Below the pieces are notes generated by a model. The model had not been told where the DNA came from and made no database searches. It worked only from the letters and a program-made list of their open reading frames with translations. This document shows, in pieces, positions 11,511 through 32,005 of a stretch of DNA of 64,000 nt. Made by a program: the position numbers and the translations under genes. The stretch's first letter is position 1; every line of letters begins with the position of its first letter. The DNA comes from Trypanosoma brucei (lineage: Eukaryota). The DNA is taken from assembly GCA_000002445.1 (NCBI GenBank), contig CM000207.1, positions 2,912,001-2,976,000 on the forward strand, read 5' to 3'.

Positions 11511-11574
11511 CAAATTCGCTTTTTTTACTCTATCAATGTTTTTGTATACACAGAGTCTTGAGCACCAACCAACA

Positions 11575-11907
11575 GCCACCACGTTGGACCCCGCAATAGC
11601 AGAAGAAAAATGCAAAGACAAACCGATGGGAAGTGCAGCGATGAAAGTGGCTGCAGATTCCAAGACGAAAAGTGCAAAGCTAAAGAGGAAGTGAAAGCGG
11701 AAGGAAAGAGGATAAATGTACTGGCCATATTGAAAAAACAGCTTGTGAAGAAGAGGACACGCCCGGCCAAACCCCCGTTTGTGGCTGGAGAAAAGACAAA
11801 GAGGGTGAACCCGAGCCAGAAAAGGAGAAGTGTCGAAATGGTAGTTTTCTCTTCAATCAGATAATTGCTCTGATTGTTTCCGCTTTTGTGAGTTTGGTAA
11901 AATTTTA
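11575..11907 (+). pseudogene. VSG: VSG C-terminal fragment (Cys-rich domain in a shifted frame; GPI tail CRNGSFLFNQIIALIVSAFVSLVKF*)
   Basis: EKCKDKPMGS...CKAKEEVKAEG... and a terminal GPI signal in different frames. No N-domain upstream. Ends about 45 bp before an ingi-like 5' end. Confidence 0.6.
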
Positions 11908-11949
11908 GCATTAAAAGGATATTTCCCAATTTTATGAAAACTATGAAAC

Positions 11950-13330
11950 ATCCCTGGTGACGCCGGCAACCTCATCGTGGCGCCAGGCTCTAGTGCTTCG
12001 TTCACGAGGAAGTCAAGTGCCTGCATTATACCCAGTCCGACAGGATTGGGGCGGGTAGCAGGCTTTTGGCGACAAGAAAAGGAGCAAGCAGCAGTATCGG
12101 CAGTCTGTGGTGAAGAAATATATTATACTGCTCCTCTGCACGTGCGACCGCGCTTCGATTGGAATACATGGGCTTTTACTACTTTTTAGCGGAGATGTGG
12201 AAGAGAATCCCTGCCATATGATTTGTGGAGCACAGTGAAATTCTGGGTGTCTCTCTCAGGCTAAGCGGATCGCCTTAAAGAAGAAGCACCAGGAGGATTG
12301 TATGCTATTTTGTCAGCTGCAGGAGATTCACTCGGCTCCAGCGGGACGTAAAGTTCTTAGAATAAGCCAATACCAGCATGTAGGATGGCAGGTTCTTCAC
12401 GTGGTGGTGGGGTATCAATTTTAGTCAAAGATATTGTGGAAGTCATCCAAAGTCCGAAGGAGGAGTTTCTGCTAGAAAGAGTCTCGGCAACGTTTATATT
12501 TTAAGCTGAGTCAAATTTGACAGTCACTTCAGTTTATTTTCCTAGAAAATCGATGGTTTCAAAAACATAGTTGGAACAATTAGCGGTATAAAGCGGTTCT
12601 CTTGTAGTAGGGGCAGATTTCAACTCACATCATGTGTTGCGGAACCCACTGCAGAATAATGACAACAAAGGGGAGTGTATTGTGTATTGGTGTATCGAAA
12701 ACGATACTAAGATAGCAAACACCAGAAAAGAAACCCTTCGTCAGGCGGGAACGGCTGTATTTCCGTTAAGAGACATCATAATGTACAGACACGTGAGGTA
12801 TAAAGTCGGACAACCATACTGAGTCCTGATAGTGACCATTTTTGGATCACTTTTGGCGTTTTTGTGAGTTGTGGTGCAGAGGTGATTGCACCCTCAAAAC
12901 CTGACCAGGGCTTTATACGCATTGGAATAAAGCGCATTGGAATGACTTCAGAGCGGTGAGTGATAAGTTCATTTTCAACAAGACTAAAGAAAAAATAAAG
13001 GATGCCGAAGCACTAAATAAAGCCATCAGGAGAAGCACAAGACAAGCAGCAAAGAAAACTATACCAAAGACAAAGGTGTATCACTGCCTTTCTGGACAAA
13101 GGAATTAAAAAATAAAATAAGCAGATAATGAAATATCGGGATGGACGTGGGAGAGACGTGCTGATTAGATGGAGAAAGAAGGCAATGTATATTACACTTT
13201 ACATTCAAGCATAAGTAACTGCAATATAAGATGTTATGCATCGCTAGTCATCACTACCCATTGGACAAAATAATAAAGAAATTAATTGCATCACGCATGG
13301 TCTCCATTAGTGTCTCCTTCACGAAGGAAA
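11950..13330 (+). mobile_element. Degenerate ingi/RIME-related retroelement fragment (DIRE-like): RIME-type 5' end CCCTGGTGACGCCGGCAACCTCATCGTGGCGCCAGG, degenerate 2A-like SGDVEENPCH, decayed AP-endonuclease region
   Basis: 5' terminus near-identical to the ingi 5' ends at 22205 and 48415. Conceptual translation parallels the ingi ORF N-terminus (2A motif, then an endonuclease-like WVSLSG..., ...ANWRNFRLKVDEL-like later) but carries many stops. The 3' limit is uncertain. Confidence 0.5.
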
Positions 13331-15717
13331 ATGCAGTGATAACGTTGTTTGTTTATTATGTGTAAACTTAGTGTAAGCTAACGTAAGTAAATAAACAAAT
13401 GGACATTGAAATAAGCAAATTAATAACGGGAAACTAATCAAGAGACGCGTCATCGCAACATACTACCCTAATAACTAATAAGAAAAAATAGACGTATTTA
13501 CAAAATAATGGATATGAAACCGAGTATGTGTAACAAAAACTGATGTTATTTTTTTTTCGGTCATATCTAGTGGCACGATTAATATACAATCAAAAGCACT
13601 GAGGTCAGAGGTGCACAAGTTGGACAATCATCCTGTTATTTGTATCTGCGTAAATTTTTAAGTGTGTTTTTATATCTTACAGATAATACTTCAAAAAAAA
13701 GATCATATTCTATTATTTGATCAACGTCAGATTAAATTCTCTTTATTCTCACTTTACAACCATTTCGTTTAATTCCACAACTTATATGCTCATGGACGCT
13801 TGCCCAATGTTGCAGTTGCTTCACTTCTCTCTTCATTCGTGGTGACATGCCAAAAAAAAACATGTGCGCTTGACTGCTTCTCATAATAAATAAAAGTAGA
13901 TAAATACATATGATTTGTACAACTTTAGACACTTTATGAAGGATTTCTCATTTGTAATCAGATCAAACAATTATAATTTGATCTCACTGTGCGCTCTTAT
14001 GACGAAGAAAATATACATCATAAGTTAAGAAAAGCACGAGGATATCTGTTATAATTTTAATAACGCACTCTGATGTATAATAACTATCATTTGAATTTTA
14101 ACGAATCGATTTGTCAAGTTTCATGCACGCACCTCTATGCCGTTTCATATGTTTGCATTGAGTGGTAGCAAGAGTTTCATGACAGTAACCGCAGCAAAAT
14201 AAATAACGTATTGGAAAAAATGTATAATTCCAGGCTGAACATGTGCTTTCTTCAAAGTGTTTGTATTTGAATGCATATTATGTAGAATACGGTGCTTCCA
14301 GTATTATTAAATACAGAAATATGTTGAAGGAACCATATGAATCACCACCGTATCCGAAGATACATTGATAAATTCACTGTTTCTACGCAATAAGAAGCAG
14401 TTAGTACTGTCGCTTCACAATATTTCTTAACGTAATGCAAAAACATTATGCACATCAAAAAAAACATTTCAGTTGTTACACACAATAAACTACTCTCGTT
14501 CTTTTCTTCCAATCAAAATGCAACATCACTAAAGAAAGAAAGTCACAGATATTATATGAATATTCGCTTTTTCATATGTTCGTTGAAATATAAAAACAAA
14601 TGAGGAAATTCGTCAAAAAGACATGACGTGTTTCGAGGAAGAAAACGGAAGTATAAAAATTATGAGAGTAAGAATAAATGTAGCATCCAAATTATCTTTA
14701 ATTCCGTTGTGGTACAATTATATGAAAAATATAATTAGTCCAGTTGATTCAATATATAAGCGGATAGAGTTTGGATGATATCAAACAAAAAAGTTCCTTC
14801 GCCAGTATATTTTTTACAAGGTGTGGAATGTGAATTAAAAAATGGGAAACGTATTTTGAGTCCGAAAGACATTATTTTGCGTGTATATGCATAAATTTGT
14901 ATGTGTGTTATGAATATTGTGTAACACCATAAGTGCCATACTGTTGAAATTCCATGCACATGCATCACGGGTTCTGCACTTTTATCAAGTAACATATGCA
15001 TTTATTAACATAAAAAAGGAGCAAACAAATGGAATGCTGCGTTTCTTGCGATATGTCATTTGTTTTTTCACGGTAAAGATATGTGGGTTTAATAAAACAA
15101 AAAATAAAGAATGGAGGAAGTGGCATAATCAAATTAGATGTAAAATCTCTTTGACCCACATAAATAATTAATTATTTATTCTTTACCACAGCGGCACTGC
15201 AGGCGAAGGGATGTGGTGATGAATTTGGCGCACAGGCGAAACTAAACAGAAAACATCAAATTAAGTAATATACGCTTATGGAAGAAACAACAGCAATACA
15301 GCGCAGAGCCGGTACAAAACTAAAGCCGCTCAGACGCAATAGATTTATTAACTGGATGAAAACATTACCGCATGACAGTTATTTTCTACAATAATATTTT
15401 GGTGTAACTTTGTGTTTCGGTGATAATGTGTTTGTCTCTCTGGGAAGAAGCAGCGGCGCTGCGCGTGAAAAGTTTTGACTAAAATCAACTAGCGAATCAT
15501 ATGCGCCTCCGTCCTATTTTCCACCATCCTTCAATTGCAGAATTTTACCAAAATAAATAAAGAGGTGGATAGGAACGAGGAAGGTTCAAAAAAAAAAAAA
15601 CGTATCAAACACCACATTTGAAAGGACCATAAAATTACACACAAAACTCCGCGGTGATAACCAAAAATAGCTGCAGTAACTGTACGCACAGAAAAGGGAT
15701 TGGGGAGGTGGCAGGGA

Positions 15718-15743
15718 ACACACACACACACACACACACACAC
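15718..15743. repeat. (CA)13 microsatellite
   Basis: Direct read: cacacacacacacacacacacacacg. Confidence 0.9.
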
Positions 15744-17590
15744 GTAACAAAGTAGATTTAGAAAAATATCACAAACTTATTCTGAGGTGAAAAAGAAAAA
15801 AGTCAAGAAAAAAAGCGCCATTACGTCACTTCACTTGGGCTCACCATTTCGATAATGTCATCTCTTCACTATTATGAAAATAAATTAATTAACAGTGTTT
15901 TTCCTTCAGCAGTAGCGCACAGGGAAGTGAAACAACCACGGGATAAAGAGATGGTTGATAATTTATTGCATTCGCTTCACCAATAAGGGACCGTAAAACA
16001 ACAACAACAACAACTAATTAGTACAAGCCAACTGCGAAAATGGGATACCTGTACAGAATTAATTTTGTCCTCTTTGGTGTGGGGAAGAGGAAGGAGTGGG
16101 GATGTCAGCTAAAAAAAAAACAACGCAACTGCAGCCGCTTGCATTTTGGTTCCCCTTCCCCACGTTTTTCGAGGACATGTTTGTAGAGGGGCAGAAGCAT
16201 AACGGCGTTACTCCACGCGTCAAGCCGCTGCTTCATAAATTAAGTGGAATAAACTCCTTAAAGACTACAACTGTTTCCAATAGCCAATACGCCGCATCAT
16301 CGTCACAAACCGAAAGATGTTGTTTCGTACATTTTAAAGGATTTGACCTCATGAGAGAACGAAACTGCCAGGCACCACACCGCCGCAATGCAACATTTCC
16401 ATCAGCCACATTTTGAGAAATCATTAAATCCACTAAAAGGCATGACAAAAATCACCGGGCCTTCTTTTAAGTTCAACTTCATTCGATCTTTTGTCAAGTG
16501 ACATGAGTGAGTTTGTGTGTACCGACACATATTTAGCATTAACTTCATGGGAGGCACAATACTGTTTTCGGAAAGAATTTGCAGGAACGTGGCGGCAGCA
16601 TCTTCCACATCACTTTTAAATGTGGCGTGTGGACTTACCTGACGCTGCCAATGCGACCATGAGGAAGTTGAAGTTGTGCGACATGCCTGAATTGCAAAAT
16701 ACAAGGAGAGATATAACAAATCAAAGTGTTTAGAAACATGTGGTGATGAACAGGCTTCCTGACAGGACTGCAATGGTGGCATGAGCCCCTCAACATCATC
16801 ATCATGAACGTCATCTACCGTCCAAACAGTTGTGCACGGGACAGCAGCCACAATGCTATTTTGTGGAATCGAAGCGAGGGTAGAAATAAGTTTCAGAGGA
16901 AAACCGTCTTGAGGAAAAGAGCGGCAACGAATATATGGAGCAACACCAATTTTTTTTTTTTGGAATTTTCTTCGTGCCTTCGTGGGAGTTTCCCCCCACT
17001 GGCGCGGCCATCAGCCATCACTGTAGATCCCTGAGATGCTATCGGTCTGGCGACTGTGGCAGAGTCTCCATTTTTTATTCAGCCTAACACACTCTCTATA
17101 ATTTTTGTTGTAGCTCCGCAGTTGAACGGAATACAGCAGATGGGGCAAGAAGCCCCCCACTCCAGACTCTCCAAAAGATGTCAATTAGCAATCCTTTTGT
17201 TTTGATTTTTGTTATTCGTTTATTATTCTCTCCCCTCTTTCTGTTTCTGTTGCTTGTTCACTGCATACCCCCTCTGTCTCTGAGGGGTCTGGACTATTCC
17301 TGCGTTCGGTGCTTTTCCTGCTAGCTCCACACCCGGCAATAAGGGGGAAAGTTGCAGAAGGGAGAGTGGGTTGTATGACTGTTACATTAGGGGAGGACTT
17401 CACCTGCGGCCGGCTCCGTTCAACCGCAATGAGAAATTGCGCCAGCCTTTTGGAGAAACATACATCCTGCACACACACTCACCTTCTACAGCAAACCTGA
17501 CACGTAACTCCTTCAAACCGGGACAGCTCATCAAGTGCAGCGACGTTTCTTTGCAGTCGCCGCTTTCGCTGGTAACAGCGCGCTCTACCT

Positions 17591-18670
17591 TCACACCGTG
17601 CATCTTCTTTTGATGTAAGGTGAGGCCAGTTTTGCTAGCACACTGCCTTCCGCATGTGGGCACATCAACATGGATGTGTTTGTATGCGGGGAATCAGTGG
17701 CACACAATTTTGTGCTTTTGCTGCATTTAAGCTCGACTCCCTCACCTTTGTGGAAAGCCTTACAGTGTCGGATGAGGGAGTCCCTGCAACTGAGAACTTT
17801 TTGGCACACACCACACTGCACCTCGCCCTTTCCTGGGACGTCAACGTTTCCCTCACGGGCACGCTTACGAGGGAATTGCACCACCATCACGGTACCTTCC
17901 TCCGTCACTATGCTCTTATGTTTGAATTTCTTGTGTAGTGACAGAGAAGAACGTGTACCGAAGCTCGCCTCGCACAGGTCACATTGAAATGGCAGCTTCC
18001 GTGTATCCTGAGGGGCTGGCGCTGCTGGGACGCTACCATCTCCTTGCAATGAGTCCTCGTTCTCTCGCCCCCTTTTCACACGGAAACTACCGCTGCCTAT
18101 GCCATGTATCGTTTGAAGGTGGTGTAATAGTCGGCCTGGCACTGCGAATTTGGAGGCACAGAGGGTACAATGAAGCACCTGCAGTCTCATCGGGACTCGT
18201 GTGCTCGATGGTAAAGGAACGATTGCCACCACTGGAGGGGGCTCCGGGGGGATATCCACTGCAGGTCTTGCATCGCCGTATTTGATCCTCCGGAGGGCAT
18301 CAGCTCGCACAAAGCCGTGTTTGTTTACCATGTGCGTTACAGCACTCGACCGGCATTGGTATGTGGCATTGCATTCCGTACATTTGGTCGGTTCGGAGGT
18401 TCTCTGAAGAGTGCGTGTCGCAACAGTTGGGGCTGTTTGCATTGTTGGCCCTATCGCTGCATGTTGTGGGTTACACCATCGGCACTGTGGAGGCACACTC
18501 GGGTTGATCTTTCGCAACATCCATCCATAGTGTCTTGAAGACCCAACCCGAAAGCGTGCCACTGTTGTTTCTTCTTCCCTCGTCAGTTCTTCTTTATGTT
18601 TTGTTGGAAAGTGGTTGCCCGTGATACCAAACCTATGAGTATTCTCATGGACTTCTTCCGACCTAAGCAC
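17591..18670 (-). CDS. ingi ORF C-terminal segment (359 aa): C2H2 zinc-finger/nucleic-acid-binding domain
   Basis: Repeated C-x2-C...H-x3-H fingers (CTECNATYQCRSSAVTHMVNKHG; CTLCASKFAVPGRLLHHLQTIHG; CDLCEASFGTRSSLSLHKKFKH; CGVCQKVLSCRDSLIRHCKAFH). Confidence 0.8.
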   Translation of the reverse strand: MLRSEEVHENTHRFGITGNHFPTKHKEELTREEETTVARFRVGSSRHYGWMLRKINPSVPPQCRWCNPQHAAIGPTMQTAPTVATRTLQRTSEPTKCTECNATYQCRSSAVTHMVNKHGFVRADALRRIKYGDARPAVDIPPEPPPVVAIVPLPSSTRVPMRLQVLHCTLCASKFAVPGRLLHHLQTIHGIGSGSFRVKRGRENEDSLQGDGSVPAAPAPQDTRKLPFQCDLCEASFGTRSSLSLHKKFKHKSIVTEEGTVMVVQFPRKRAREGNVDVPGKGEVQCGVCQKVLSCRDSLIRHCKAFHKGEGVELKCSKSTKLCATDSPHTNTSMLMCPHAEGSVLAKLASPYIKRRCTV

Positions 18671-18700
18671 TCGCTTCGCATAAGCAATGATGTCGGGGAT

Positions 18701-21523
18701 CTATGTGTCTCGAAACTGTGGTAAATCTGCGGACTTTTTGGCCATTTCATTACAAACCTCATTCCGTTTCACGCCACAATGGCCAAACACAAATTGCTGT
18801 CGGATACGTATCTTCCTTCTCTGAACTTGAAGCAGAAGCCTCCATAGTCGTCTCAGAATTGGGTCCGTTACGGCTAGGGGGCCTGTCTGCAGTGCTGTTA
18901 ACATTGACAGCGAGTCAGAGAAGATGGACAACCTGCTCAGTGTGCTTCTGTATGCCGGAAGCCATTTCAGCAGCCGTTGCAGCCCTATCTCTAATGCTAC
19001 GCATTCCGCTCTGTAACTGCATGAGAGTTCCCCTGCTCCCGTTTTGGGTGCACAAATCAGCGTGTTGTTTCTATAGAGCAGGGCAGCTGCTCCGGACTTC
19101 TTACCGAGGGACACGGATCCATCAGTCCACAATTCGTAGTGCTCTCGCCGCGGTGGCTCCTTCCCCCTCCGTGCAAAATGCCGTGCAATCCACTTTTCGG
19201 AAGCCTCCCTTTTGACATCGTCAGGGTCATCAGCGCACACAGGCTTTATCTGCGTGTGAAACATCGGTCGGCAGCTGTGGCGGAGCGTCGCTGTCTCTAG
19301 TGGGTGCTCGCGTGGCTCAATGCGGAGGTGGGGGTAGGACCGCATGATGCGGGAATGTAAGACTCTGACTGCATGTTTGCTGTGGTATACTTCTTCAGCA
19401 CTGCGCCGTAAACATCCGCCTCGTGACTCACACATCAGCATGAATTTCATGCTGCGCACAAGAGTGGTCGTCTTGAGTGGCAGGAGGTTTGCTTGCAGCA
19501 GAGAGTTCTCTTTGCGCGTCCCATGCGGTATGCCAGCTATGATGCGACTGGCTTTGTGTTGTGCTGCTGCAAGGAGGTCGCGACTTCGTTTTGAAGCGTC
19601 CCAGTACCATACCTCAATGCCATACATGGTGTGTGCCTGTACGAGTGCTACGTAAAAAGCTCTCAGTACTTGTCGTCTTGGCCCCCATGTAGAAGCTGAG
19701 ATGGCTGCTATATGCAGTAGTCTCAAGTCCATGTTGCGTCTCGTTTCGGCTGCATGTGTTGCCATCCCTTGCAGACACTGGAATGTTACTCCTAGAAGCT
19801 TCGGTGTCCTGTCAGCTCCTATTCTTTCGCCGTCCAGTTGTAATGTAAGGGGGTGGCGCTCTATACACCCGAAGAGTGTGCACTTTGTTTTCGCTACGTT
19901 TACAGACATAAAGTACTCTTTTGACCACTGTAACACCACGTTGAGGCCGCATTGCAGTGTGTGGTTGATGACATCCCTCTCTGTGTGCCTCGCAAGTAGC
20001 GTTAGGTCGTCTGCAAAGAATCCGTGCTGCAGTAACGGCACTTCTGCAAGGCGTTGGCTCAACGAGTTCATGACAATAATGAACATGATTGGGCCAAGGA
20101 CAGTTCCTTTTGGCACTCCTCGCTCAAATGTTCTGCTTCTGGAAAGCTTCTCCTTGAATCTCACTCTGCCAGTTCGGTTACTCAGAAATGATACGCACCA
20201 CTTCACAATGTGGTGTGATACCTTCATTCTGTGCATTTCCCTCGCAACTTTGTCGTGGTCTACTGTATCGAATGCCTTCTCGTAGTCAACGAATACAGCA
20301 CCCGTATGAGATTGGTGCGTGGGACGGCAGAGGGCGGCACGGACCTGCAGGAGTTGTTCGAGCGTTGAGCATCCGGAGCGAAAGCCTGATTGCTGCGGCG
20401 TCAGCTGGGACTCAACAGTATCTCTAAGCCTCGCGGCAATTATGCGTTCCATGACTTTGCAGAGACAGCTCGTGAGCGTCACAGGCCTGTAAGAATCGAG
20501 GTCCTCCGCCTTTTTTCCGGCCTTCAGGATGGGGATGATAACACCAGTCTTCCATGCAGGCGGCACGACTCCCGTTCGTAGGCTCTCATTGAATAGCCTC
20601 AGAACAACATTCAGCGCTGTTCTACCGAGATGTTGCAGTGCCTCGTTGTGTAAGCAATCAGGTCCGGCTGCGGATCCACTCGGTAGCAGTTTGATCGATC
20701 TCCGTAGTTCAGCCATCGTGATGGGACTGAACTCACTCGCTATCGTCTTTATGGGTGCCGGTGGGTGTGAGTCGGGGTGCCTTCTTGCGCGGGACGAGTA
20801 CAGTTTACTGAACCTCTCAGCTTGACGGTAGTCCGTGATGGCCGCGTTATCAACAAGTACAGCCGGTGTGGTTAGTGGTCGTGGCGCGTATACCTTCTTG
20901 ACAATGTGCCAACTGCAGCGGTCTGACACCGCAAGTCTGGAGCATAGTGTGCTCCATCTCTTCTTTGTGGTACGGTCCAGGATCTGCTTACGTGTGGCTA
21001 CCAACTTTTCCCTTCGGTGGGAGGGTCCGCATCCAGGGATCTCTTCATCGAGTTTCGCGAGCTCAGGTGTCCAATGTGGTGGCGTTGCTCTGCAGCCACG
21101 GGGGACGGAGACCTTCGTCGCAATACGGATGGCGGAGCTCAATTTCTGTTCCAGGGTGTTGACGTTCTTCTCTCTACCAATTTTCCTGCAGAGCTCGTCA
21201 ACCTTGAGACGGAAATTCCTCCAGTTAGCTTTTAGCCATGCGTACATGGGCTTTCGAAGCCGCGGGCAACTCAGTGCATCTGTGTCGTCTCCAACGATAA
21301 CGTCGAAAAATATGTGATGGTGATCGCTATAGGGAGAATACAGCGATGTCCACGTGTACACTGTGCAATTCCTTGAGAGTGTCACATCAGGGGTGGACTC
21401 CCCGTGGTGGCGCGCGTACCTGGTGGACTCACCAGTGTTGCAGACCAGAAACTGGTTGTTAATGCACCACTGTGTGAGGGTTTCACCCTTGGTATTTGGT
21501 GGGTTCGCGCGATCCCATGCCAA
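18701..21523 (-). CDS. ingi ORF central segment (940 aa): AP endonuclease C-part, reverse transcriptase, RNase H
   Basis: RT motifs (..VTLTSCLCKVMERIIAARL.., FVDYEKAFDTVDHDKV, FADDLTLLA) and an RNase H-like C-part (ELWTDGSV...FGHCGVKRNEVCNEMAKK). Confidence 0.85.
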   Translation of the reverse strand: MAWDRANPPNTKGETLTQWCINNQFLVCNTGESTRYARHHGESTPDVTLSRNCTVYTWTSLYSPYSDHHHIFFDVIVGDDTDALSCPRLRKPMYAWLKANWRNFRLKVDELCRKIGREKNVNTLEQKLSSAIRIATKVSVPRGCRATPPHWTPELAKLDEEIPGCGPSHRREKLVATRKQILDRTTKKRWSTLCSRLAVSDRCSWHIVKKVYAPRPLTTPAVLVDNAAITDYRQAERFSKLYSSRARRHPDSHPPAPIKTIASEFSPITMAELRRSIKLLPSGSAAGPDCLHNEALQHLGRTALNVVLRLFNESLRTGVVPPAWKTGVIIPILKAGKKAEDLDSYRPVTLTSCLCKVMERIIAARLRDTVESQLTPQQSGFRSGCSTLEQLLQVRAALCRPTHQSHTGAVFVDYEKAFDTVDHDKVAREMHRMKVSHHIVKWCVSFLSNRTGRVRFKEKLSRSRTFERGVPKGTVLGPIMFIIVMNSLSQRLAEVPLLQHGFFADDLTLLARHTERDVINHTLQCGLNVVLQWSKEYFMSVNVAKTKCTLFGCIERHPLTLQLDGERIGADRTPKLLGVTFQCLQGMATHAAETRRNMDLRLLHIAAISASTWGPRRQVLRAFYVALVQAHTMYGIEVWYWDASKRSRDLLAAAQHKASRIIAGIPHGTRKENSLLQANLLPLKTTTLVRSMKFMLMCESRGGCLRRSAEEVYHSKHAVRVLHSRIMRSYPHLRIEPREHPLETATLRHSCRPMFHTQIKPVCADDPDDVKREASEKWIARHFARRGKEPPRREHYELWTDGSVSLGKKSGAAALLYRNNTLICAPKTGAGELSCSYRAECVALEIGLQRLLKWLPAYRSTLSRLSIFSDSLSMLTALQTGPLAVTDPILRRLWRLLLQVQRRKIRIRQQFVFGHCGVKRNEVCNEMAKKSADLPQFRDT

Positions 21524-21752
21524 CTCGCGTGTGCGTTAGCGTCTGCACCGATGAGCTGGGCACCGTCAGTCGTCAGAAGCGTATCTATGTCAGTTGCCGT
21601 GAAAGTGTGTTTTGGTGGGATGTATGCCGACGTGACACTAGCGCCGTTCCACGTGCAATGTGAATTGTTGCATGCACTTGTTCAATGCGACCAACAACGA
21701 GTCTACCGGTATAGACTGGCATGTGCTACCTCACTAGTATTGATACACCACC

Positions 21753-22196
21753 TCATTTGCAGTTACGAGCTATTCTGTGATTTTGGTAGCCAGCAACGCT
21801 AAAGCAAGCCGCCTCTCCAGGCGTCATCCTTGTCTCGCTCAACAGACAAAAGGCGATCCGCTCATCAACAAGGGTTTTGTGGAGTGCTAATCTCTTTCCT
21901 TGAGATAGCCCGGCGCAGTTCCACTGCATCCCGCGCAACGACGGGCCGGGATTCTCTTTCACATCACCGGACAGCAGCATCTTAGTGCGGATGATACTGC
22001 TGATGGCACGCTGGCACGTGCCCAGGGACCGACAAATGAAAGACGGTGTCCCAGCAAGACGCTGCTGATCCCTGTGCTGTATAATGCCGTAGCCGGAGCA
22101 CAGCAGTGTTCCCCATGAAAGGAACGCTGCTGGTTCTTGGCTTCCCCCGATGATACGGGGTACTGGACCCTGGCACCACGTTGAGGTGGCCGGCAT
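21753..22196 (-). CDS. ingi ORF N-terminal segment (147 aa) with 2A-like peptide ...MLLSGDVKENPGPSLRGMQWNCAGLSQGKRLALHKTL...
   Basis: Contains the D-x-E-x-NPGP-type 2A motif (DVKENPGP) followed by the AP-endonuclease N-terminus. Separated from the next segment by a frame disruption. Confidence 0.8.
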   Translation of the reverse strand: MPATSTWCQGPVPRIIGGSQEPAAFLSWGTLLCSGYGIIQHRDQQRLAGTPSFICRSLGTCQRAISSIIRTKMLLSGDVKENPGPSLRGMQWNCAGLSQGKRLALHKTLVDERIAFCLLSETRMTPGEAACFSVAGYQNHRIARNCK

Positions 22197-22211
22197 CGCC
22201 AGGGGCCGTAG

Positions 22212-23054
22212 TTGTACTGCGCCGATGGCGTGTGTACGGCATGTTTGCCTAATAATGACTTAAAAATCACGAGGAGTGCTTCCAGTAGTGCTGTTTTTTT
22301 AAGTATTTCGCCACTATTGTCGCTTTGGGTGCTGGGCCACAGGCTTCGCTGGCGAACTTGTTTCTGGTTGAGCTCCCGTTGCTTATACAACCTGCGGCAG
22401 CCGTTTCGTCCGAGTTGTCGCCGCAACGGTAGGCTAGGCCGTTGGCTAGAGATGTGCCGACCTTGTTGTCTGCGCTACCGTCATTGCCGCATGCTGCGTT
22501 GCCGCCGCTGCCGAGCGTTGACTGCCAGGTACCCTTTGCTTCTGTGTTTCCTTCGCCGTACAGAACCTCCTTTAGGTCAGTATTTATCGTTATCGTTGTC
22601 TTGTCCTTGGGCAACGCCGCTTTTTCTGCTTCGAGGTTAGCTATCGCTTCCGGTGCTTGTTGTTGTATACCGGATCGAAGTGGACCGGCGGTTATACATG
22701 TAATTTTTGCCAGTATATTTCCTATCTTTTTTTTGCCTAAATCTTTTTTTTAGTTGTGCCCAGGTGTTCTTATGTTTTGCGTAGTTCTTGTCCTTTTGAT
22801 GGTCTTGGACGTCGTCGAAGTTACTTCCGAAGAATTCTTCATCTGCTGCCGACATGTTATTGATGACTAACGTTTTTTGTTTCAGATTCTAGTGTTGGTT
22901 CAGCCTCGTTTCCAGTGGTTGAAGTCCCCTGTTCGCACGTGGTAAATAGTTGACACATTAGCGCGAATTCTTTGATATTGTGTCCTGCTGTCGGTGCACA
23001 TTTATCCGCAAAAAGGACCACTTTTATTGCTACCACTAATGTGGTTTGAAACAT
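22212..23054 (-). pseudogene. VSG: VSG 5' fragment: signal peptide plus N-terminal domain pieces (ORFs 22857-23054, 22637-22855, 22267-22614), ending within a few nt of the ingi copy 1 5' end
   Basis: MFQTTLVVAIKVVLFADKCAPTAGHNIKEFALMCQL... then ...KEVLYGEGNTEAKGTWQS...CGNDGS..., typical B-type VSG N-domain. No C-terminal domain follows, and the ingi 5' end starts at about 22205. Confidence 0.6.
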
Positions 23055-23203
23055 AGTGTGTGCCTCCTTGGTTCCTGTATATCGTTAGCGTTTGTTGAGA
23101 AGAGGTTTGTTTTGAAACATTGACATCATATGTGAAGAGTTTAATTTTTTATCGCTGTTAATATGCAACGTAAGGGTGACTTCATTTGATGATATTGTGA
23201 TGT

Positions 23204-24258
23204 TTAACCTGTTCGTTGTTGTTTAGCATGGTCAAAAAACCACTTACGGTAAACTTCATTCTGGAGGTACACAGGTTGTTGCATCTTACTGTTTAGAACG
23301 TCAACTGTTGTCAGAAAGGTGTAATCACTCTCTTTTAAATAATGCATCACTATTATTGCCGTAATTAAAAGCTTCTGGGTGTGACTCTGAGTGCATAACA
23401 TAGCTACAATCTTGTATATTCACAGTCAATAGACCTTCAATTTTTATTTTGTGCCTTATCACCTCACCAACCATAATATCTTCGTTCAAAGCAGCATATT
23501 CAATATATTTTTCGAAATTTCGAAAGCTCACTTTGTTGGATAATAGTTTGGAAATTCCCGAATAGCCAACTATTTCTTTTACAACATCTCTCGAAATTGT
23601 GTTCGCATACCCAACGACATAACACGTCAGCTTTCCAATACTCGTCAAGTTCACCCCATGCTCTCCCCATATTCAATTTCTCTTGTGGCAATATTTCAAG
23701 GTATTGCAAATACAATGGCACCCTCATAAATATATCATCATCTGCTTTCATTATATAGGGATTAGCTGACTTGAATGTATCAACTGCAAATTTGAATCAC
23801 AAATATGTTTTTCTACTCATCGTGAGATCTTCTTCCCAAACCCAATTCCTCAGCCCTCCAACTTTTTTACTTGCTGTTGGATTCACATTACAAACAGACA
23901 AAATTATAATATCCTGGTATAACTCTGCCTCTTCTTTAACAATTTCTCTGAGCTCGCAATTATTATTTGTATGAGGGGAAAGAGCGTATACTATAAGAAA
24001 CTTTCCACTGAAATTATTTGACTTTCTCGCAACTTCAGAGTAACTCCAACACGTTTCTCCCTGTAAATTCTTTCTTCTAAATCTTTCATCATTATCTATT
24101 GAAGGTATCCCAGATACAACAAAATAATCTTCAGTTTTCCAAATCTTCCTTACATCTTTTGATACAAGTTTAATATACTCATCTTCAACAATCTCCAGTG
24201 AAATGGATTCACCCTCACTAAACAAACTGTAGAGTGACACACATAAATTAATCCCCAT
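23204..24258 (-). pseudogene. Beta-1,3-glycosyltransferase-like (UDP-Gal/UDP-GlcNAc-dependent GT family) pseudogene, split over frames 23797-24258, 23500-23751, 23325-23654, 23204-23401
   Basis: Motifs of the beta3GT (Galactosyl_T-type) fold: K-A-DDD-IFM (DxD), CYVVGYANTISRDVVKEI (like ..C.GGGY(V/L)(L/M)S.D(L/V)), NEDIMVGEV (like EDV(Y/F)xG). Frameshifts separate the pieces. The VSG 5' fragment lies about 150 bp downstream (on the minus strand). Confidence 0.55.
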
Positions 24259-25074
24259 AACAATAAAAGATAAGCAACTTACTGTTCTTTAGATACCTCC
24301 CATATTGTTCATAACTTCCTGTTTTCGTACTAATGAAAACTTTAAATATCTTATAATATCATAGAGGTTGTTAAGAAAGAAGTCAGTTGTGGCACTAAGG
24401 TGTTTATTTAAGGAAACGGTATTTACGTAAGCAATGTCTTTATATTGTTATCATGTATCTGTCGAAAGATGTATGTTCGGTGTGCGCACCTTATATTTTC
24501 ACCTGCATCTATATTTCCCTCTACACATTGTTATGTAAATTGCAGTAGCTAGGTGCGCCACTGGGTCATGTGTGCTAAGATTTTAAAGACTTCTGCGCTA
24601 CCTTCCCCGCCAATCGACTTTTATCATGAAAGACACATCATTATAAGTTGATAAACTACTGCTACTGTTGTTATTACAACAATCATCTCCACTTTTCCAT
24701 CTATCCATGTCTGAGTGAAATACAGCGCTTTATCGCCTCCTGTCTTGTTTCTCTGTGCTTTGCTGCGTCTTTTATTCTGTCCTTTACTTCCACATTTTCA
24801 GACTTTGGCGGTCACCGCCTCTGCCACGACCGATAAAATAGAGTCTCTGTGTCCCTCACTGTCCTCTCCATAGCTTTCTCTTATGTGGTGATGTCCGGCA
24901 GAGTGTAAGAAATTGCTAATATTTAAATCCTTTTATTTCTCCGTTCTTCTGAATTTCCTTTATTAACATTTCTCTTCTCTCCCATTCACCCATCTACTTC
25001 TTTAGTAGCAGTAGCACTGTTTTAAGTGCCTCTATTTTAGAAATCCATACAGTTTTCTCCACCACCCTTATTAA

Positions 25075-25150
25075 AAAATTAGTATATGCACACTTACAGC
25101 ACTCCCCTATTATTATTATTAGCCATACTATTATCACTATTACTATTGCA
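25075..25150 (-). repeat. Single 70-bp repeat unit, reverse orientation (GCACACTTACAGCACTCCCCTATTATTATTATTAGCC...)
   Basis: Reverse complement of the GT-rich core plus a short TAA tract. Lies upstream (on the minus strand) of the GT pseudogene/VSG fragment cassette. Confidence 0.65.
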
Positions 25151-25433
25151 ACCCCAAAAGTACTAATAATTAAAAAATCAATAAAATGAACCAAAAAATG
25201 ATTTTTATAATGGCAGTATTTTTTCATATTTTATTACCTTATTACTTTGGACCCATAGGACACATTCAGACATAAAATTTATATTTTTTAATTTTTCAAC
25301 AATCTACACATTTTTGTCAAAAAGTTTTAAAATATATTAAATTTTAGAAAATTTATTTCTTTTCTAAAAATATAAATTTTTATGAATTTTATAAAATATA
25401 GCAAAAATCGTTTACACACAATTCTTAAAAGTA

Positions 25434-26880
25434 TTATTCTAGAAGCAAAACTGCGAGAAAAAGAGGCGACTTGTTAATAACAGCATAATCGTTTCCTGTA
25501 GTGTTTGTTGTTCCTGAATTTTCACTGTTTTCTGTTTTTATTTTCTTTTTAACTTGTTTCTCATCTACTTCGCACTCCCCTTTCTCGTTATCCCCTCCTT
25601 TCCATGAGCATTTCGCTCCTGTGCAAGCTTTTTTGTTGTTTTTGTGTTGTGCGCATTCTTTTGTTTTTGCTAAGGTTTCGGCGTCACTATTTTTTTTTTG
25701 ACATTCTTCTGAGCAACGTTTTTGTTTGCCCACGGTCGTGCGTGGTAGATTAGGTCCTTCGTTATCTTGGCTTTCGCCTTTACTGCATCTGCAGTGTGCT
25801 GTCGGATTGCAACGGCTTTTTTATGTTTTCGTAATTTTCCTAGCAGGCTATGAAGTTGTCCCAGCCAAGGTATCACTTCGCTGGCTTTTCCCGCTCCTTG
25901 TGAAAGGCCGTTGTAGCTTACACATATGCCTCGCGTCTCTTGTGCTGAGCAGTCTGTACCTAGATACACACCGAGTGTGGCTTTACTTGTGCATAACTTT
26001 AGAAGGCTTGCTATAGCGTCTATTTTTGCTTCTAGCTTCGCTGCAGTTAGCTCGGCTGTTTTTTGAGTGTCACACAGCTTTTTCACTTCTTCCATCGTCG
26101 CTTGGTTTGGTGGCGTACCGGCGACGGTCCAATTCGAGGTCATGGCAGGATCGGCTCGGCATACTTTGTCTTGATTATGGGCATTGTTGGTGCTTTCTTT
26201 CATGCAGAGGCACGCCAGCGTGCCGAGGACCGTTTTGGTTTTGCCGGTGTTTTTTTCCCCCGTGCAAAGTGTGTCGCGGCTCCCTCCTGCCTGCTGCCTC
26301 AAAATTGCCTGTCGCTATCTCTGCGCCAACCGGCTCTTTGTCCCTCCCATACACCGCTGCGTTTAGCATTTGTTGCACGGTTTCGGTGGTTAGAAGGTCG
26401 GTTTTCGGTGCTTCCGCCTCTGCTTAGAGTTGAAGCGCTGCTGCTTCCGCTGCAATTTTTTGTACGTCGCAGCAGATGTTGGCTATCTGTTCCTCAGTTG
26501 CCCCTTTTAGGCCCCGCTGCTCTCTCTTGGTTTTAAGTTTATCGTCGGTCAGAATTTCTTCTTTGCTTTTCCATTCGTCCCATTTGGCCCCCCAGTCTGT
26601 TGTTTGATTGTAGTCGGCCTCAGGGAAGTCCCTCGCCGTGTTTTTTCCTGGCCCTGCCCTGAAGATTTCGCGCCATTCGTTTGTCGCCACCGACATGTTG
26701 AGGTCTAAGAGGTCGTTGAGGGCTGATGGGGGCCCGACTTTGGATGCGGGTAACATAGATCGCTGGCCGGCGAGTGTTACGATCGCACAAAGCGCCGTCG
26801 CTTCGTTAGCATTCGCGAGTTCAGAAAAATCGGCTGCCACCTTGAGTAAAAATACCGATTATAGCACTGTCGACAGGAAC
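25434..26880 (-). pseudogene. VSG: VSG pseudogene (frameshifted: N-domain 26424-26840, middle 25670-26302, C-terminal domain and GPI tail 25434-25733 ending ...GNDYAVINKSPLFLAVLLLE*)
   Basis: B-type N-domain (..ATALCAIVTL.., NMSVATNEWREIF), then ..LACLCMKES..., Cys-rich C-terminus and an Asn-type GPI signal, in three different frames. Confidence 0.7.
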
Positions 26881-27924: not shown

Positions 27925-28460
<536 letters not shown>

Positions 28461-28474
28461 AGGGATCTCGCAGG

Positions 28475-28640
28475 CATCGTGAGGGAAGTATGGGGTAGTA
28501 CGAGAGGAACTCCCATGCCGTGCCTCTGGTTTCTGGAGTTTGTCGAAGGGCAAGTGCTCCGACGCTATCGCACGGTGGTTCTCGCCTGAACGCCTCTAAG
28601 CCAGAAACTAGTCACAAGACCGGGTGCCCGTAAAAGCAAA
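28475..28640 (+). rRNA. Large-subunit rRNA fragment (sarcin-ricin loop / helix 95 region through the conserved GAACGCCTCTAAGCCAGAA block), an isolated partial copy and presumably non-functional
   Basis: GGGGTAGTACGAGAGGAACTCCC forms the universal SRL hairpin (AGUACGAGAGGAAC). The downstream CTGAACGCCTCTAAGCCAGAAAC matches the universally conserved LSU 3'-domain sequence (eukaryotic GACTGAACGCCTCTAAGTCAGAATCC). No other rDNA was recognised nearby. Confidence 0.55.
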
Positions 28641-28693
28641 AAGCAAAAAGAGAAAGAATAGGGAAAAATATAGTGTACATGTAAAGTGCGTTC

Positions 28694-28716
28694 CATATAT
28701 ATATATATATATATAC
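28694..28716. repeat. (TA)11 dinucleotide repeat
   Basis: Direct read: atatatatatatatatatatata. Confidence 0.85.
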
Positions 28717-31700
28717 ATACTCATTTATATAAGTGTGTGGGCACGGCTTGTGTGTATCTCTATATGGCTCACTGACGTTGAAGGGAATGCAAAAGTGTAT
28801 AATAACACTACATATGCGTGTGTATGTGTGTATATTACTTTGTATTTCTGTGTGAGACGTGTTTTATGTGCGGGCATATACGTATATAAATGCTCTTTAT
28901 ACCTCCGTCTCTTCCAGTTGGCTGTTCACGCTCAAGAAAAAAAAAACATATTCGAAACGAATATTATCTCGAATCGCCACTTCTCTTATCTGGTGGGCTC
29001 TGCCCGCCATTGTCGGCGCCAAGTACCTTCATTTTCACAAGATCTGTTTTGAACGCGTTGAACAAAAAACAAAAGCAACGGAGGAATTTCATTACTTATA
29101 AAATATATGTAATGATGCGGAGGTGTGAGAGGTATTATGTTATGCTTGCATCAACAATGCGCATGCATATTCACTCTATGTGTGTGTATGTTTTTGTCTG
29201 TATTGTTGCGCGTCACACTGTGTGGCACTATATATACATATATTAGGCAATGTTCCAATTATTTTTTGGTGCATTGTGTTGCTATGTTTGTGTAAGTGCC
29301 ACCAACTCTGTGAACCAAACCTATCTCTCTGTATATATTTATATACAATATAATAATATTTTGTCCCTCTCCAAACGAGAGTACATGCATGGACTGGCAT
29401 GAGCGGCACGCTCCACGACCGTGGGGCTCGAGGGGCACTTTACGTCCCGAGGCGCTGAACCTTGATGCTTGGAATTTCATGCTCAGGGACTTTTGAAGAA
29501 GTCATATATGTGTGCTTGTATATGTGTATGTGTGTTGTGTTACGTTGCGTCGAGATGTTGGGGCCGCATTCTCTACTATGTTTGTAGTCTCCTATATTGC
29601 ATCACGTTGTGACGGGAAGCGTGTTATTGGATGTGTGTGTATGGTCACTCGGATATTCTGCTATGCCGCAATCGTTCCATGGAAGAATAAAATTAATAGC
29701 ATGACATTGTGTTTTATAATAATATATTCTGTAAGCCTTTATTTTTTGCGAGATTCCCATTTACATATGAGTCTGTGTGCTGATTTCTGGAGAGTTGTCA
29801 TTAATACACACCAGCTCATCTCATCATAGTCTGAAAAAGCCTTACTCTATTATATATACATGGATTTGGCCTAACAGAGAATGAAAACACAGATCCTGTT
29901 GTATATAACATCCAATATGTCCAAGAGCCAAGGGTACATTTATTTATTGATGTTTACATAGATCCCATATTTGTCGCACTGGAGTTTATGCTCTTGATAT
30001 CACAATATATTATATGCTGAGGGGAGAGCTTGCACACGTATGGGGAATTTATAGGAATATTATAATAAGCTCCTTTGTGTTTGCCGCTTTTCTAGAAATG
30101 TGAAAATAATGCAAACTGTATATTTTGTGGCTGTGAAGGTTTGTTGTAATATATCGACATAGTTTTCCCCTGTACATACTAATAATATACCATGAGGCGT
30201 TATGTGCACAATATGGGAAGTGTGGCTACTGTATATGTTAGTTTTTAAATCTTCCTTCGGATGAAACACTAGTGTCACACCTCTCCTTCTCACATCATAT
30301 GTATGTGCTTCGCCTCACATTATTACTCCATACCATCGTGGTCTATTGGAAGAAATGATGTGGAATGATAGATTGGGTGAAAAACGAAAAGATCAGAAAG
30401 GCATGACTATCTTTCTCTAGTGTGTGGTGTACGCTGTTGATGCTTTGAAAGTTCTGCATCATCAAGTGATATCATATACCCGTATGCTGCGCTTGTGCAT
30501 ACGTATGTGTATATATTTTCTTTGATACATTCTCGGCGTAATGGAGAGTGTGTCCATGTCAGTTATTTTTTGTTTCGTTGACGAACTTACACACTTCAAT
30601 GCGAATATCCATCATTTTACACATGATGTAGTCGCTTAGCCCTATGCTAGGTGCGTGTGGTTGGTAAAAGATTAAGAAGAGAGAGGGTCTAAACAATATG
30701 TTAGAGGCTCGAAAGTAATGTTCAATTCAAAAGGATTTGGTTCTTTCCTTTCATCCCCTTCAAACTTTTTATTGCTACTGAACAAGAGGTTTTGATGGTG
30801 CATAAATGCGAACACTTAGTTCCTACCGTCGTACATGTTTTTTTTTTGGAAAAGTATAGACTGTTGTGTCAAAATACACGCATGTTCTGCGAGTAAGGAG
30901 AAACTCACGGTTATTGATGAAGTAAATGCGATTGGGCACAAAAATGAAAATTCCTCTATTCAATATACGCTTGTGGTTGTGAATTCCCATTATCGACATT
31001 GGAACTTCGAATGTCCTCGGCATGCTGTTGCAAGTTGTTTTAGTGAAGCGGCGTGTCAGCACCTGTTTTGTATTTTTTATTATTAATCACTTGGACTCGC
31101 TCAGCGTCTGACAAAGCGCTAGACTTCGCTTCTTTATTTTACGTGTCGCTGCTCTAATGTCTATGTTTAATATATGTTTATATATCAACATGTTTATTCA
31201 TTTAAATATTTTTGAGCGTTTAGGCATGTTGCAGGGTAAAAGTAACCTCATACAGTGGCTACTGGATTTGGCTATTCGATGTGGTTGTTGGAATTGGAAG
31301 TGTCTCCATATCTTTCGTTCCACCGAGAGGTAGAGTGCCATCATCCCCCTTCAAAAGCTCATATTTATGCAGTCTAGAAAATATGTTGAGGAAAAGAGTA
31401 TATCAATACACAAATGTCACGACATACACACTATTCATTTGGTATCTGTATTCAAGAAATGAAATGATTAAGACCGTGGCTTATAGTTCTCTGTTTTGGA
31501 GAGCTCTTTATATACATATATATATTTTGTGGACAAAAGAACTAACGTAATTGTGTGACCTTTCCGGGCATACATAACAGGAAGTTGATGGAAGCGGTTG
31601 CGTATCGCTCTACTCAGTGGTGAGTGCTGCTTTGGTGCGCAGTTACAACCTATCACCTATTATTATCACTATTATAGAAATAAATCACTCCTAATATTCA

Positions 31701-32005
31701 TAAAATAAACAACATGATCCAAAGTAGCGAATGTTCCAAAGGGCACTCATTTTCATACCCTATCACCATACCACTTCTCACCCACAGTCACTATTATACA
31801 CAATTCACTAAAATTTTCGTATTTTTCGAGTTTCTCAACCTTTCATAATTTTCATCAGAAAATGTTAAAATATAGCAAATTTTAAAAAATCCTTAGAATA
31901 CTAAAATGCTAACCAACTCATAAAAGCAGAAGAAGTAATCAAAGCGAATTTTTCATTTAGAATAATTCTGGAATATTTGCCTTTAATCCATCAACAGACA
32001 GATTT

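Follow-up and report, generated by a model that had tools for sequence, protein, structure and literature searches.

Decayed GT67 and ESAG3 glycosyltransferase-family genes lie between 70-bp repeats and class-B VSGs in a subtelomeric array of Trypanosoma brucei

The classical co-transposed region of VSG genes, defined in expression sites, is a non-coding interval of 1-2 kb that is copied together with the VSG in duplicative transposition. The GT67 enzymes of T. brucei (TbGT3, TbGT8, TbGT10, TbGT11 and TbGT15) are UDP-Gal/UDP-GlcNAc-dependent members of the beta3-glycosyltransferase (beta3-GT) superfamily, and subtelomeric, strain-variable copies and pseudogenes of this family have already been recorded (PMC4288722; PMC8477195). 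ESAG3 has been reported, from cryo-EM and enzymology, to be a GT-A, PLOD3-like retaining O-glucosyltransferase whose catalytic residues are D110/D113, G215-G216, W242, E244/Q245 and H297 (preprint, bioRxiv 10.64898/2026.01.27.701950). The majority of subtelomeric ESAG3 copies are pseudogenes (PMC6152948), BES7 and BES15 carry an ESAG3 pseudogene 3′ of the 70-bp repeats, and recombination breakpoints coincide with ESAG3 loci (PMC2567434). Pseudogenes of both families are thus already documented in the subtelomeric VSG arrays of T. brucei, and an ORF belonging to the GT67 locus described below is already annotated as a protein in TREU927.

The 64-kb stretch of DNA analyzed here (the window) is an ordinary T. 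brucei subtelomeric VSG array, silent and chromosome-internal. VSG_A and VSG_B domains are found all along it by Pfam search, a 16-mer of the VSG 3′UTR occurs 8 times (0.11 expected), and about 13 cassettes are present, only two of which contain a glycosyltransferase-family pseudogene. These two cassettes are in opposite orientations, as the original prediction had noted, and share the layout it described: a single 70-bp unit, approximately 0.8 kb, a pseudogene of approximately 1 kb, a further 0.15-0.3 kb, and the start of a VSG. Using as blastn query a 74-nt consensus built from a tandem 70-bp array within the window, we find the 70-bp unit 2.0 kb ahead of the VSG start in cassette 1 and 2.16 kb ahead of it in cassette 2; for the other cassettes this distance is estimated at about 0.8-1.4 kb.

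Within the window the array has two strand switches, one at each member of an inverted pair of ingi elements, and this is why cassettes 1 and 2 face in opposite directions. One of the pair is a full-length retrotransposon on the minus strand (16964-22199; RVT_1, RNase_H and endonuclease domains) that truncates the cassette 1 VSG and shares 96.8% identity over 5243 bp with its inverted counterpart at 48419-53657; a target-site duplication was sought at 16964-22199 and none was found. Degenerate ingi-like fragments are also scattered through the region. An inversion between the two elements was considered as the cause of the opposite orientations, together with the possibility that a VSG 5′ half (23054-22200) and a VSG 3′ half (48418-47718) once formed a single gene. 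Both halves adjoin ingi 5′ ends, the ingi flanks show no target-site duplications, and the outer flanks contain no matching VSG halves; a simple insertion followed by inversion does not fit these data.

Cassette 1, on the minus strand, is headed by a degenerate 70-bp unit at 25139-25068 (blastn, 73.6% over 72 nt, E 8e-9) in sense orientation, on the same strand as the downstream VSG. Its pseudogene was found where predicted, with ORF fragments spanning 24258-23204, and alignment to the homologue P0005 places the original ATG at 24312, giving a pseudogene of 24312-23204. The repaired translation matches the TREU927 GT67 member P0002 (E 7e-123, 70% identity), protein identity to the members P0002 and P0003 is 70-77%, and the tblastn match passes through frames -3, -2 and -3. 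The ORF at 24258-23797 is 100% identical to the annotated TREU927 protein XP_827762.1, and TREU927 is almost certainly the strain from which the window comes. The beta3-GT assignment of this locus also held in the HMM search, in which P0002 scores 28.3 bits against a PF01762 (Galactosyl_T) cutoff of 23; the 153-aa fragment alone scores 14.8 bits, under that cutoff. A profile search retrieves 33 trypanosome GT67 proteins, and the GT67 profile matches B3GNT2 and B3GALT5 in the PDB.

Like the T. brucei GT67 family, locus 1 contains the blocks GIPSIDN, MSRKTYLWFKF and NEDIMVG and keeps the GT-A metal-binding DxD motif (DDD, within KADDDIFMRVP), together with its ATG. Unlike the GT67 enzymes, it has no intact reading frame, being disabled by two stops (at codon 8 and by a W-to-stop change in TYLWFKF) and two frameshifts (near 23641 and 23391), and it ends in a mosaic 3′ tail from a far more divergent GT copy. 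The subfamily to which it belongs shares no more than 45% identity with the full-length GT67 enzymes of 377-400 aa and is known mostly from fragments, which in TREU927 are located on the contig of locus 1 itself, on a second contig of 1.59 Mb and on the unplaced Tb10.v4.0188 and Tb11.1830. The close relatives that were found are likewise truncated, the exception being L001, a T. equiperdum contig that carries a nearly intact ORF covering aa 25-345. Judged by its sequence, locus 1 is a decayed member of this inverting, beta3-GT-like GT67 subfamily and encodes no working enzyme. Downstream of it lies the 5′ part of a B-type VSG pseudogene at 23054-22200 on the minus strand (PF13206 VSG_B, E 8e-12), whose concatenated ORF fragments, 23054-22267, match positions 5-242 of the profile and whose sequence is cut off at the ingi 5′ end (22199/22200).

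Cassette 2, on the plus strand, is headed by a degenerate 70-bp unit at 57773-57825 (blastn, 80% over 60 nt, E 4e-7), also in sense orientation relative to its VSG; the original prediction had correctly placed a single unit at the head of each cassette. A further unit at 56788-56860 on the plus strand (75% over 73 nt, E 4e-10) has a 51-nt direct repeat in common with the unit at 57773-57825, at a spacing of 967 bp. Downstream of each of these two units there is another short similar stretch. The VSG of cassette 2 is B-type and occupies 59985-61436 on the plus strand (PF13206 VSG_B, E 7e-62), with VSG3 (6ELC) as its nearest solved structure (E 3e-27). Its ORF opens at 59877, and the signal peptide and Pfam domain both begin at M37, which sets the start at 59985; this start and that of cassette 1 at 23054 agree with the predicted ones. 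The C-terminus is frameshifted, making this VSG a pseudogene: the C-terminal domain match is slightly under the Pfam cutoff, the GPI-signal peptide is in a different frame, and a tryptophan has been changed to a stop. The two VSGs had been thought to differ in N-domain type, and both turn out to be VSG_B.

The pseudogene of cassette 2 had been called a second beta3-GT copy starting at 58870, in a prediction that itself named ESAG3 as the finding that would speak against that call. ESAG3 is what was found. A pseudogene is indeed present at this position, but the element begins about 200 bp earlier: ESAG3 (Fam53) homology extends over 58663-59626 on the plus strand, and we delimit the pseudogene as 58660-59686, the end being extrapolated from a length of 368 aa. 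When repaired, its translation aligns along the whole query to cluster P0001, whose members were named ESAG3 by their depositors (E 2e-110, 63% identity, 100% query coverage), and tblastn with ESAG3 recovers aa 2-131 in one frame and aa 145-348 in another, at 63-65% identity. The start ATG has become AAT, several in-frame stops are present (among them at aa 18, W59 and W241), one frameshift has removed approximately 14 aa, and the substitutions include D110Y, G214C, W242L and E244D. Among the reported catalytic residues and their neighbor W241, D110, W242 and E244 are thus substituted and W241 is a stop, with D113, G215, G216, Q245 and H297 kept. By these sequence criteria locus 2 is a decayed ESAG3 copy that, unlike working ESAG3 with its catalytic D110, encodes no working enzyme.

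Calling locus 2 glycosyltransferase-like therefore proved right in a general sense, since ESAG3 is reported to be a GT-A O-glucosyltransferase, and wrong as to family, because it is not GT67. In our own searches the signals linking ESAG3 to the PLOD3 GT domain are weak, though consistent with each other: ESAG3 matches Pfam GT_PLOD with E 0.005, under the cutoff, and the ESAG3 profile weakly matches the LH3/PLOD3 GT domain in the PDB (E 0.03-0.3, residues 44-118). A phmmer search of PDB sequences with a single ESAG3 sequence gave no match, and AlphaFold models of ESAG3 (pLDDT 32.8) and GT67 (pLDDT 40.6) were too poor for use. Locus 2 has the same position as the ESAG3 pseudogenes of Lister 427 BES7 and BES15, with a 70-bp repeat on one side and a VSG on the other. 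Unlike them, it resides in a silent chromosome-internal array and not in a telomeric expression site, and it is nearer to array copies of T. b. equiperdum (70-83% nucleotide identity) than to expression-site ESAG3.

The two pseudogenes are not copies of each other, as had been supposed from what seemed clear but diverged homology. Sensitive blastn and tblastx comparison of 22800-25400 with 57500-61600 produced no match between the pseudogene bodies; only the 70-bp region aligns (25015-25296 with 57620-57880, 64% identity). Similarity was also sought between the pseudogene-to-VSG spacers and between the VSGs of the two cassettes, and none was detected. The GT67 members P0002 and P0003 have no tblastn match at locus 2, the locus 2 fragments have no Pfam match, and tblastn across the window detects a single copy of each, GT and ESAG3. 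At the protein level, ESAG3 and P0002 align by BLASTP with E 0.57, the hhalign probability for the two family profiles, ESAG3 and GT67, is 0.33%, and the solved relatives differ, with LH3/PLOD3 on one side and B3GNT2 and B3GALT5 on the other. These comparisons indicate that loci 1 and 2 represent separate glycosyltransferase families without detectable homology, to both of which the term glycosyltransferase-like applies only loosely; ESAG3 relics have a glycosyltransferase-like look because ESAG3 is itself a glycosyltransferase. The proposal that one composite of GT pseudogene and VSG is present twice thus fails, its second instance being ESAG3 with nothing beyond the 70-bp region alignable. 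Overall, the original observation is partly confirmed and its interpretation partly supported.

The part of that interpretation that gains some support is the idea that such pseudogenes belong to the upstream portion of VSG cassettes, provided that each family is considered separately and not as one common module. Gene calls in two T. equiperdum assemblies yielded, with the window included, a small sample of four GT and three ESAG3 loci. In each of the three further GT loci of this sample, a pseudogene of the same subfamily is followed after 160-470 bp by an unrelated B-type VSG: in L001 (GT at 1156-2109, VSG_B at about 2580), in L002, which is T. b. equiperdum IVM-t1 chromosome 9, CM010680.1, at about 2.07-2.09 Mb (70-bp unit at 9126-9190, GT at 10011-11043, VSG_B at about 11204), and in L003 (GT to about 1630, VSG_B at about 1807). 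The VSGs downstream of the GT relics are mutually unrelated. ESAG3 pseudogenes precede a VSG start by 180-370 bp in both further cases, each in L002 (5991-7050, VSG start 7422; 17376-18349, VSG start 18529). The relic at 5991-7050 has no same-strand 70-bp unit upstream, and the three ESAG3 modules have no detectable similarity outside their coding regions, which indicates that they are old or independent rather than recent cassette duplicates. Relic and VSG start share a strand in 7/7 loci, the relic preceding by 150-470 bp, and all seven VSGs are class B, figures to be read with the caution that in a nearly pure array of VSG cassettes any inserted gene has a VSG nearby.

A comparison with L002 locates an internal discontinuity in the GT relic. 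A conserved inter-VSG block at 23392-25508 on the minus strand is 94% identical over 2119 bp to L002 8758-10865 and comprises the end of the GPI-signal coding region of the upstream VSG, the 3′UTR, the 70-bp unit, the spacer and, from its 5′ end, about 900 bp of the GT pseudogene; the VSGs on either side of it differ between the window and L002. Over the final 300 bp the two sequences are 99-100% identical, after which similarity is lost abruptly at about 23407, within the GT coding sequence. The break coincides with a QDCxYVMH motif that other GT copies also conserve, and the sequence that follows, the tail at 23390-23204, is only distantly GT67-like (IVMHYLKESDY). From the alignment, this abrupt loss of similarity looks like a recombination junction, and its position within the relic fits past use of the relic as a recombination substrate. 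What a junction signifies is that a rearrangement happened there; it implies neither that homology was the cause nor in which lineage the event took place.

Taken together, these observations favor, with a probability of roughly 0.8, a reading in which relics of two non-homologous glycosyltransferase families, GT67 and ESAG3, are passengers of VSG cassettes in the subtelomeric array. Each of the two relics in the window lies in the interval from a single 70-bp repeat to the VSG start codon and would be copied with the VSG whenever a cassette is duplicated from the 70-bp repeat. The relics may have arrived by ancestral segmental duplications and may persist by hitch-hiking on cassette duplication, and as multi-copy sequences they might now and then supply the homology by which recombination from one array to another exchanges the downstream VSG. 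Such recombination would explain both the presence of one type of GT relic before four unrelated B-type VSGs and the mosaic GT relic with its sharp junction at QDCxYVMH. The likeness to the co-transposed region is one of position, as the relics lie in exactly that interval and co-copying is predicted from this position; the difference is that the interval is here doubled in length by a foreign pseudogene. We know of no GT relic in a bloodstream expression site, and a GT relic could therefore not guide conversion into one.

The relics might instead be nothing but debris, random remnants whose position is coincidental and which take no part in cassette duplication or recombination. This would suit their presence in only 2 of the ~13 cassettes of the window, the heavily disabled state of both pseudogenes, the abundance of ingi and degenerate ingi-like fragments in the same region, and the lack of anything in common among the ESAG3 modules outside the coding sequence. 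We nevertheless consider it unlikely, because coincidence accounts poorly for a fixed strand and a distance of 150-470 bp in 7/7 loci, for a 2.1-kb block containing the GT relic that is 94% identical between TREU927 and T. b. equiperdum in spite of different flanking VSGs, and for a downstream edge of that block that falls within the relic, at a conserved GT motif, with a tail beyond it that is still GT-derived.

Much less credible is a functional role for one or both loci, in which they would, for example, give rise to regulatory or antisense RNA or act as a gene-conversion reservoir for the repair of intact GT67 or ESAG3. The first 153 codons after the early stop do form an ORF annotated as a TREU927 protein, the DDD motif of locus 1 is intact, and L001 has a near-intact ORF (aa 25-345); against this, locus 1 carries the codon 8 stop, another stop and two frameshifts, and locus 2 lacks a start codon and has several stops, a frameshift and the catalytic change D110Y. 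To our knowledge, silent VSG arrays undergo no appreciable transcription, which also counts against such a role. Finally, an inverted duplication of a single module of 70-bp unit, beta3-GT pseudogene and VSG, with GT copies that have since diverged, would account for the equal order and spacing of parts and for the alike 70-bp regions of both cassettes, but it deserves almost no credence when the latter similarity is common to every cassette in the window, the pseudogene bodies have no nucleotide or translated similarity, copy 2 is ESAG3 (E 2e-110), and the two families fail to match by BLASTP (E 0.57) or hhalign (0.33%) and have profiles that find different PDB relatives.

For annotation, the distinction between the two families means that ESAG3 relics must be kept separate from the GT67/beta3-GT family. 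More speculatively still than the recombination role considered below, the relics could be fossils of an ancestral linkage of VSG genes with the enzymes that glycosylate their products. This idea rests on the O-glucosylation of class-B VSGs by ESAG3 and on the class B identity of the downstream VSG in 7/7 cases.

The repair route of a broken VSG is decided by the availability of homology (PMC12137147), and for this reason recurrent non-VSG blocks in the co-transposed interval could matter for the exchange or mobilization of array VSGs. Within the passenger reading, it is a doubtful but specific possibility that GT67 and ESAG3 relics act, as conserved multi-copy non-VSG homology blocks directly before the VSG, as upstream recombination anchors besides the 70-bp repeats for some class-B VSGs. 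The mosaic junction in the GT relic offers a concrete example of the possible use of non-VSG homology. If the relics do serve as anchors, downstream VSGs would be shuffled among the cassettes of the arrays, and the choice of silent VSGs for mobilization could be biased.

Judged from their sequences, the two pseudogenes that lie between a 70-bp unit and a VSG gene in the window are unrelated to each other. The one on the minus strand (locus 1) finds its best match in the GT67-family protein P0002 (70% identity, E 7e-123), which itself passes Pfam Galactosyl_T, and its earlier description as a beta3-glycosyltransferase-like pseudogene is thereby borne out; the solved structures matched by a GT67 family profile include human B3GNT2 and B3GALT5. 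Locus 1 is a dead GT67/beta3-GT gene that keeps the DDD motif. Its original ATG lies at 24312, as placed by alignment to P0005, a longer relative, and its defects comprise two frameshifts (near 23641 and 23391), a TAA at codon 8 and a stop in place of the tryptophan of TYLWFKF. XP_827762.1, a "hypothetical protein, conserved" of T. b. brucei TREU927, is identical (153/153) to the product of the ORF at 24258-23797. A profile search assigns locus 1 to a subfamily with at least 56% identity to P0002, the TREU927 members of which are all fragments of 111-345 aa; the full-length GT67 enzymes of 377-400 aa show at most 45% identity. By accession, further subfamily copies are located on the same contig as XP_827762.1 (EAN762xx, EAN774xx) and on a 1.59-Mb contig, and others bear the names Tb10.v4.0188 and Tb11.1830.

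At locus 2, plus-strand fragments at 58891-59575 extend upstream to 58663, and the repaired translation matches a single cluster, the members of which were named ESAG3 by their depositors (E 2e-110, 63% identity, full coverage); in tblastn, two frames together account for ESAG3 aa 2-131 and 145-348. This locus is a dead ESAG3 copy, with AAT in place of the start codon, several in-frame stops (including aa 18, W59 and W241), one frameshift with the loss of ~14 residues, and substitutions of D110 (reported to be catalytic) by Y, W242 by L, and E244 by D. A 2026 preprint describes ESAG3 as an O-glucosyltransferase of the retaining GT-A type that depends on Mn, modifies VSG3 and is structurally closest to LH3/PLOD3 (bioRxiv 10.64898/2026.01.27.701950). 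In weak agreement with the preprint, ESAG3 matches Pfam GT_PLOD below the cutoff (E 0.005), and the ESAG3 profile weakly matches the LH3 GT domain over ESAG3 residues 44-118 (E 0.03-0.3). Given the reported activity and these weak matches, both relics would therefore be glycosyltransferase-derived, from different families with opposite mechanisms.

A BLASTP comparison of ESAG3 with the GT protein revealed no relation (E 0.57), and hhalign gave a probability of 0.33% for the ESAG3 profile against the GT67 profile. By tblastn, the window contains a single copy of either family, and only the 70-bp region aligns between the two cassettes in sensitive blastn and tblastx searches. The original prediction held that one GT-pseudogene and VSG cassette was present twice, inverted. 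Its layout and its identification of locus 1 stand; the second occurrence does not, the pseudogene there being ESAG3, without similarity to the GT relic, an assignment that the prediction had itself named in advance as one that would refute it.

The order of 70-bp unit, pseudogene and VSG is indeed present in both cassettes. In cassette 1, on the minus strand, the 70-bp unit (25139-25068) is separated by 756 bp from the GT relic (24312-23204), which is followed after ~150 bp by a B-type VSG (23054-22200) cut by an ingi retrotransposon at 22199. In cassette 2, on the plus strand, ~835 bp lie between the 70-bp unit (57773-57825) and the ESAG3 relic (58660-~59686), and ~300 bp between this relic and a B-type VSG (59985-61436) with a frameshifted C-terminus. 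Different N-domain types had been proposed for these two VSGs; both are Pfam VSG_B. The distance from 70-bp unit to VSG start is 2.0 kb in cassette 1 and 2.16 kb in cassette 2, as against an estimated 0.8-1.4 kb or so in the window's other cassettes, and each relic therefore lengthens by ~1.1-1.3 kb an upstream interval that is normal in other respects. A 519-aa VSG ORF in cassette 2 (59877-61436) seems intact, yet the GPI-signal peptide (SFGITKKLALAAVSPVALAAFSLF) is encoded in another frame; a tryptophan-to-stop change precedes this peptide in the 61250-61520 region, and no VSG 3′UTR 16-mer was found after the gene. An extra plus-strand 70-bp unit (56788-56860) lies 967 bp upstream of that of cassette 2. 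The two units have a 51-nt direct repeat in common and enclose no VSG; situated shortly before the ESAG3 relic, they resemble an "empty" cassette or the product of a local duplication.

The cassettes face in opposite directions, as predicted, because the array switches strand twice, each time at an inverted ingi copy. ORF listing and Pfam scans reveal a T. brucei-type subtelomeric VSG array across the window, with A- and B-type VSG N-domains (Pfam) spaced every 3-4 kb, 70-bp repeat units upstream of the VSGs, often accompanied by very long (TAA)n tracts, and eight occurrences of the VSG 3′UTR 16-mer TGATATATTTTAACAC (at most two mismatches), as against 0.11 expected in the window. The two full-length ingi copies (16964-22199, minus; 48419-53657, plus) are 96.8% identical and bracket the entire minus-strand VSG block, one at each strand switch. 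The 5′ end of the first abuts the VSG_B 5′ half at 23054-22200, that of the second abuts a VSG 3′ half with a GPI signal (48418-47718), and no target-site duplication was found at either element. Simple ingi insertion plus inversion accounts for neither the half-VSGs at the 5′ ends nor the absent target-site duplications.

Several other features of the array were observed. Nearly pure (TAA)n/(TTA)n tracts of up to 283 units (623-1473, 4069-4803, 28004-28417, 43851-44328) adjoin 70-bp units, whereas the TAA run of the canonical 70-bp repeat is far shorter. Two perfect plus-strand copies of the 16-mer lie ~1 kb apart (7343-7358 and 8416-8431); no VSG was recognised ahead of the second, which may thus mark an orphan VSG 3′ end. 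A degenerate ingi-related fragment (11959-12994, plus; 35-40% amino acid identity to ingi nt 3-1033 by tblastx) resides in a 5.7-kb stretch (11200-16963) where no 70-bp unit or VSG was identified. A 3.4-kb, AT-rich stretch without a long ORF (28420-31860, minus) separates the 3′ end of a VSG, with its 16-mer at 31877-31862, from the 70-bp block that follows. Long ORFs at 36012-36698 (minus), 41749-42768 (minus) and 54656-55213 (plus) have no Pfam match even at E≤1; by eye, the first two resemble fragments of A-type VSG N-domains.

The comparison sample comprised three loci from T. equiperdum assemblies: L001 and L003, which are OVI contigs, and L002 (IVM-t1 chromosome 9, 2,073,468-2,093,944). 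L001 starts with a TAA/70-bp remnant, followed by a GT ORF (1156-2109) and a B-type VSG from ~2580; in L003, a GT relic extending to ~1630 precedes a 430-aa B-type VSG ORF from ~1807. L002 contains a 70-bp unit (9126-9190), a GT relic (10011-11043) and a B-type VSG from ~11204, as well as two ESAG3 relics (5991-7050 and 17376-18349) with VSG starts after them at ~7422 and ~18529. At four of four GT loci and three of three ESAG3 loci, relic and VSG share a strand, and 150-470 bp separate the relic from the VSG start downstream of it. The ESAG3 modules are alike only within ESAG3 coding sequence, and one is without a same-strand 70-bp unit. The downstream VSGs of L001-L003 exhibit no similarity to one another or to the window VSGs. 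All seven VSGs directly downstream of a relic (these five and those starting at 23054 and 59985 in the window) look class B in this small, non-independent sample; for five of them PF13206 is confirmed, through Pfam scans or through precomputed gene calls, and the L002 fragment at ~18529 was assigned by eye only. Class-B VSGs are reported to be O-glucosylated by ESAG3; given such a sample, the class-B association of the relics may be due to chance.

Window positions 25508-23392 and L002 positions 8758-10865 are 94% identical over 2119 bp. The upstream edge of this block falls within the terminal part of the VSG before it, where the GPI signal is encoded; gene conversion usually extends downstream as far as the conserved VSG 3′ end. 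At the downstream edge the change is sharp, from 99-100% identity over the last 300 bp to background at ~23407, within the codons of the conserved QDC(H/S)YVMH motif. Past this edge, the window sequence still codes for the C-terminus of a GT67 protein (IIVMHYLKESDY, compared with IVxHHIxExDY in the family), which shows only 37-50% local identity to P0025 and P0010, the family members that it matches best; L002 continues into a P0002-like tail. The junction shows an apparent rearrangement that joined two GT-derived sequences in register. In the simplest reading, two diverged GT relics would have recombined by crossover and exchanged all downstream sequence, VSG included; the junction is no evidence that this happens often or under selection.

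The best explanation, with a confidence of about 0.8 for identity and context, is that two unrelated glycosyltransferase-family pseudogenes are carried along in the co-transposed intervals of VSG cassettes of type B. Less firmly, these relics may sometimes serve as recombination substrates; a function as alternative anchors of recombination tied to class-B VSGs is unlikely. ESAG3 pseudogenes 3′ of 70-bp repeats are known from BES7 and BES15, and it has been suggested that breakpoints of recombination in expression sites are marked by ESAG3 loci (PMC2567434). Subtelomeric GT67 copies and pseudogenes that vary among strains have been described (PMC4288722, PMC8477195), and recombination upstream of VSGs extends beyond the 70-bp repeats, with repair steered by the availability of homology (PMC12137147). 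All of the findings described here fit within this picture of ESAG3, GT67 and recombination.
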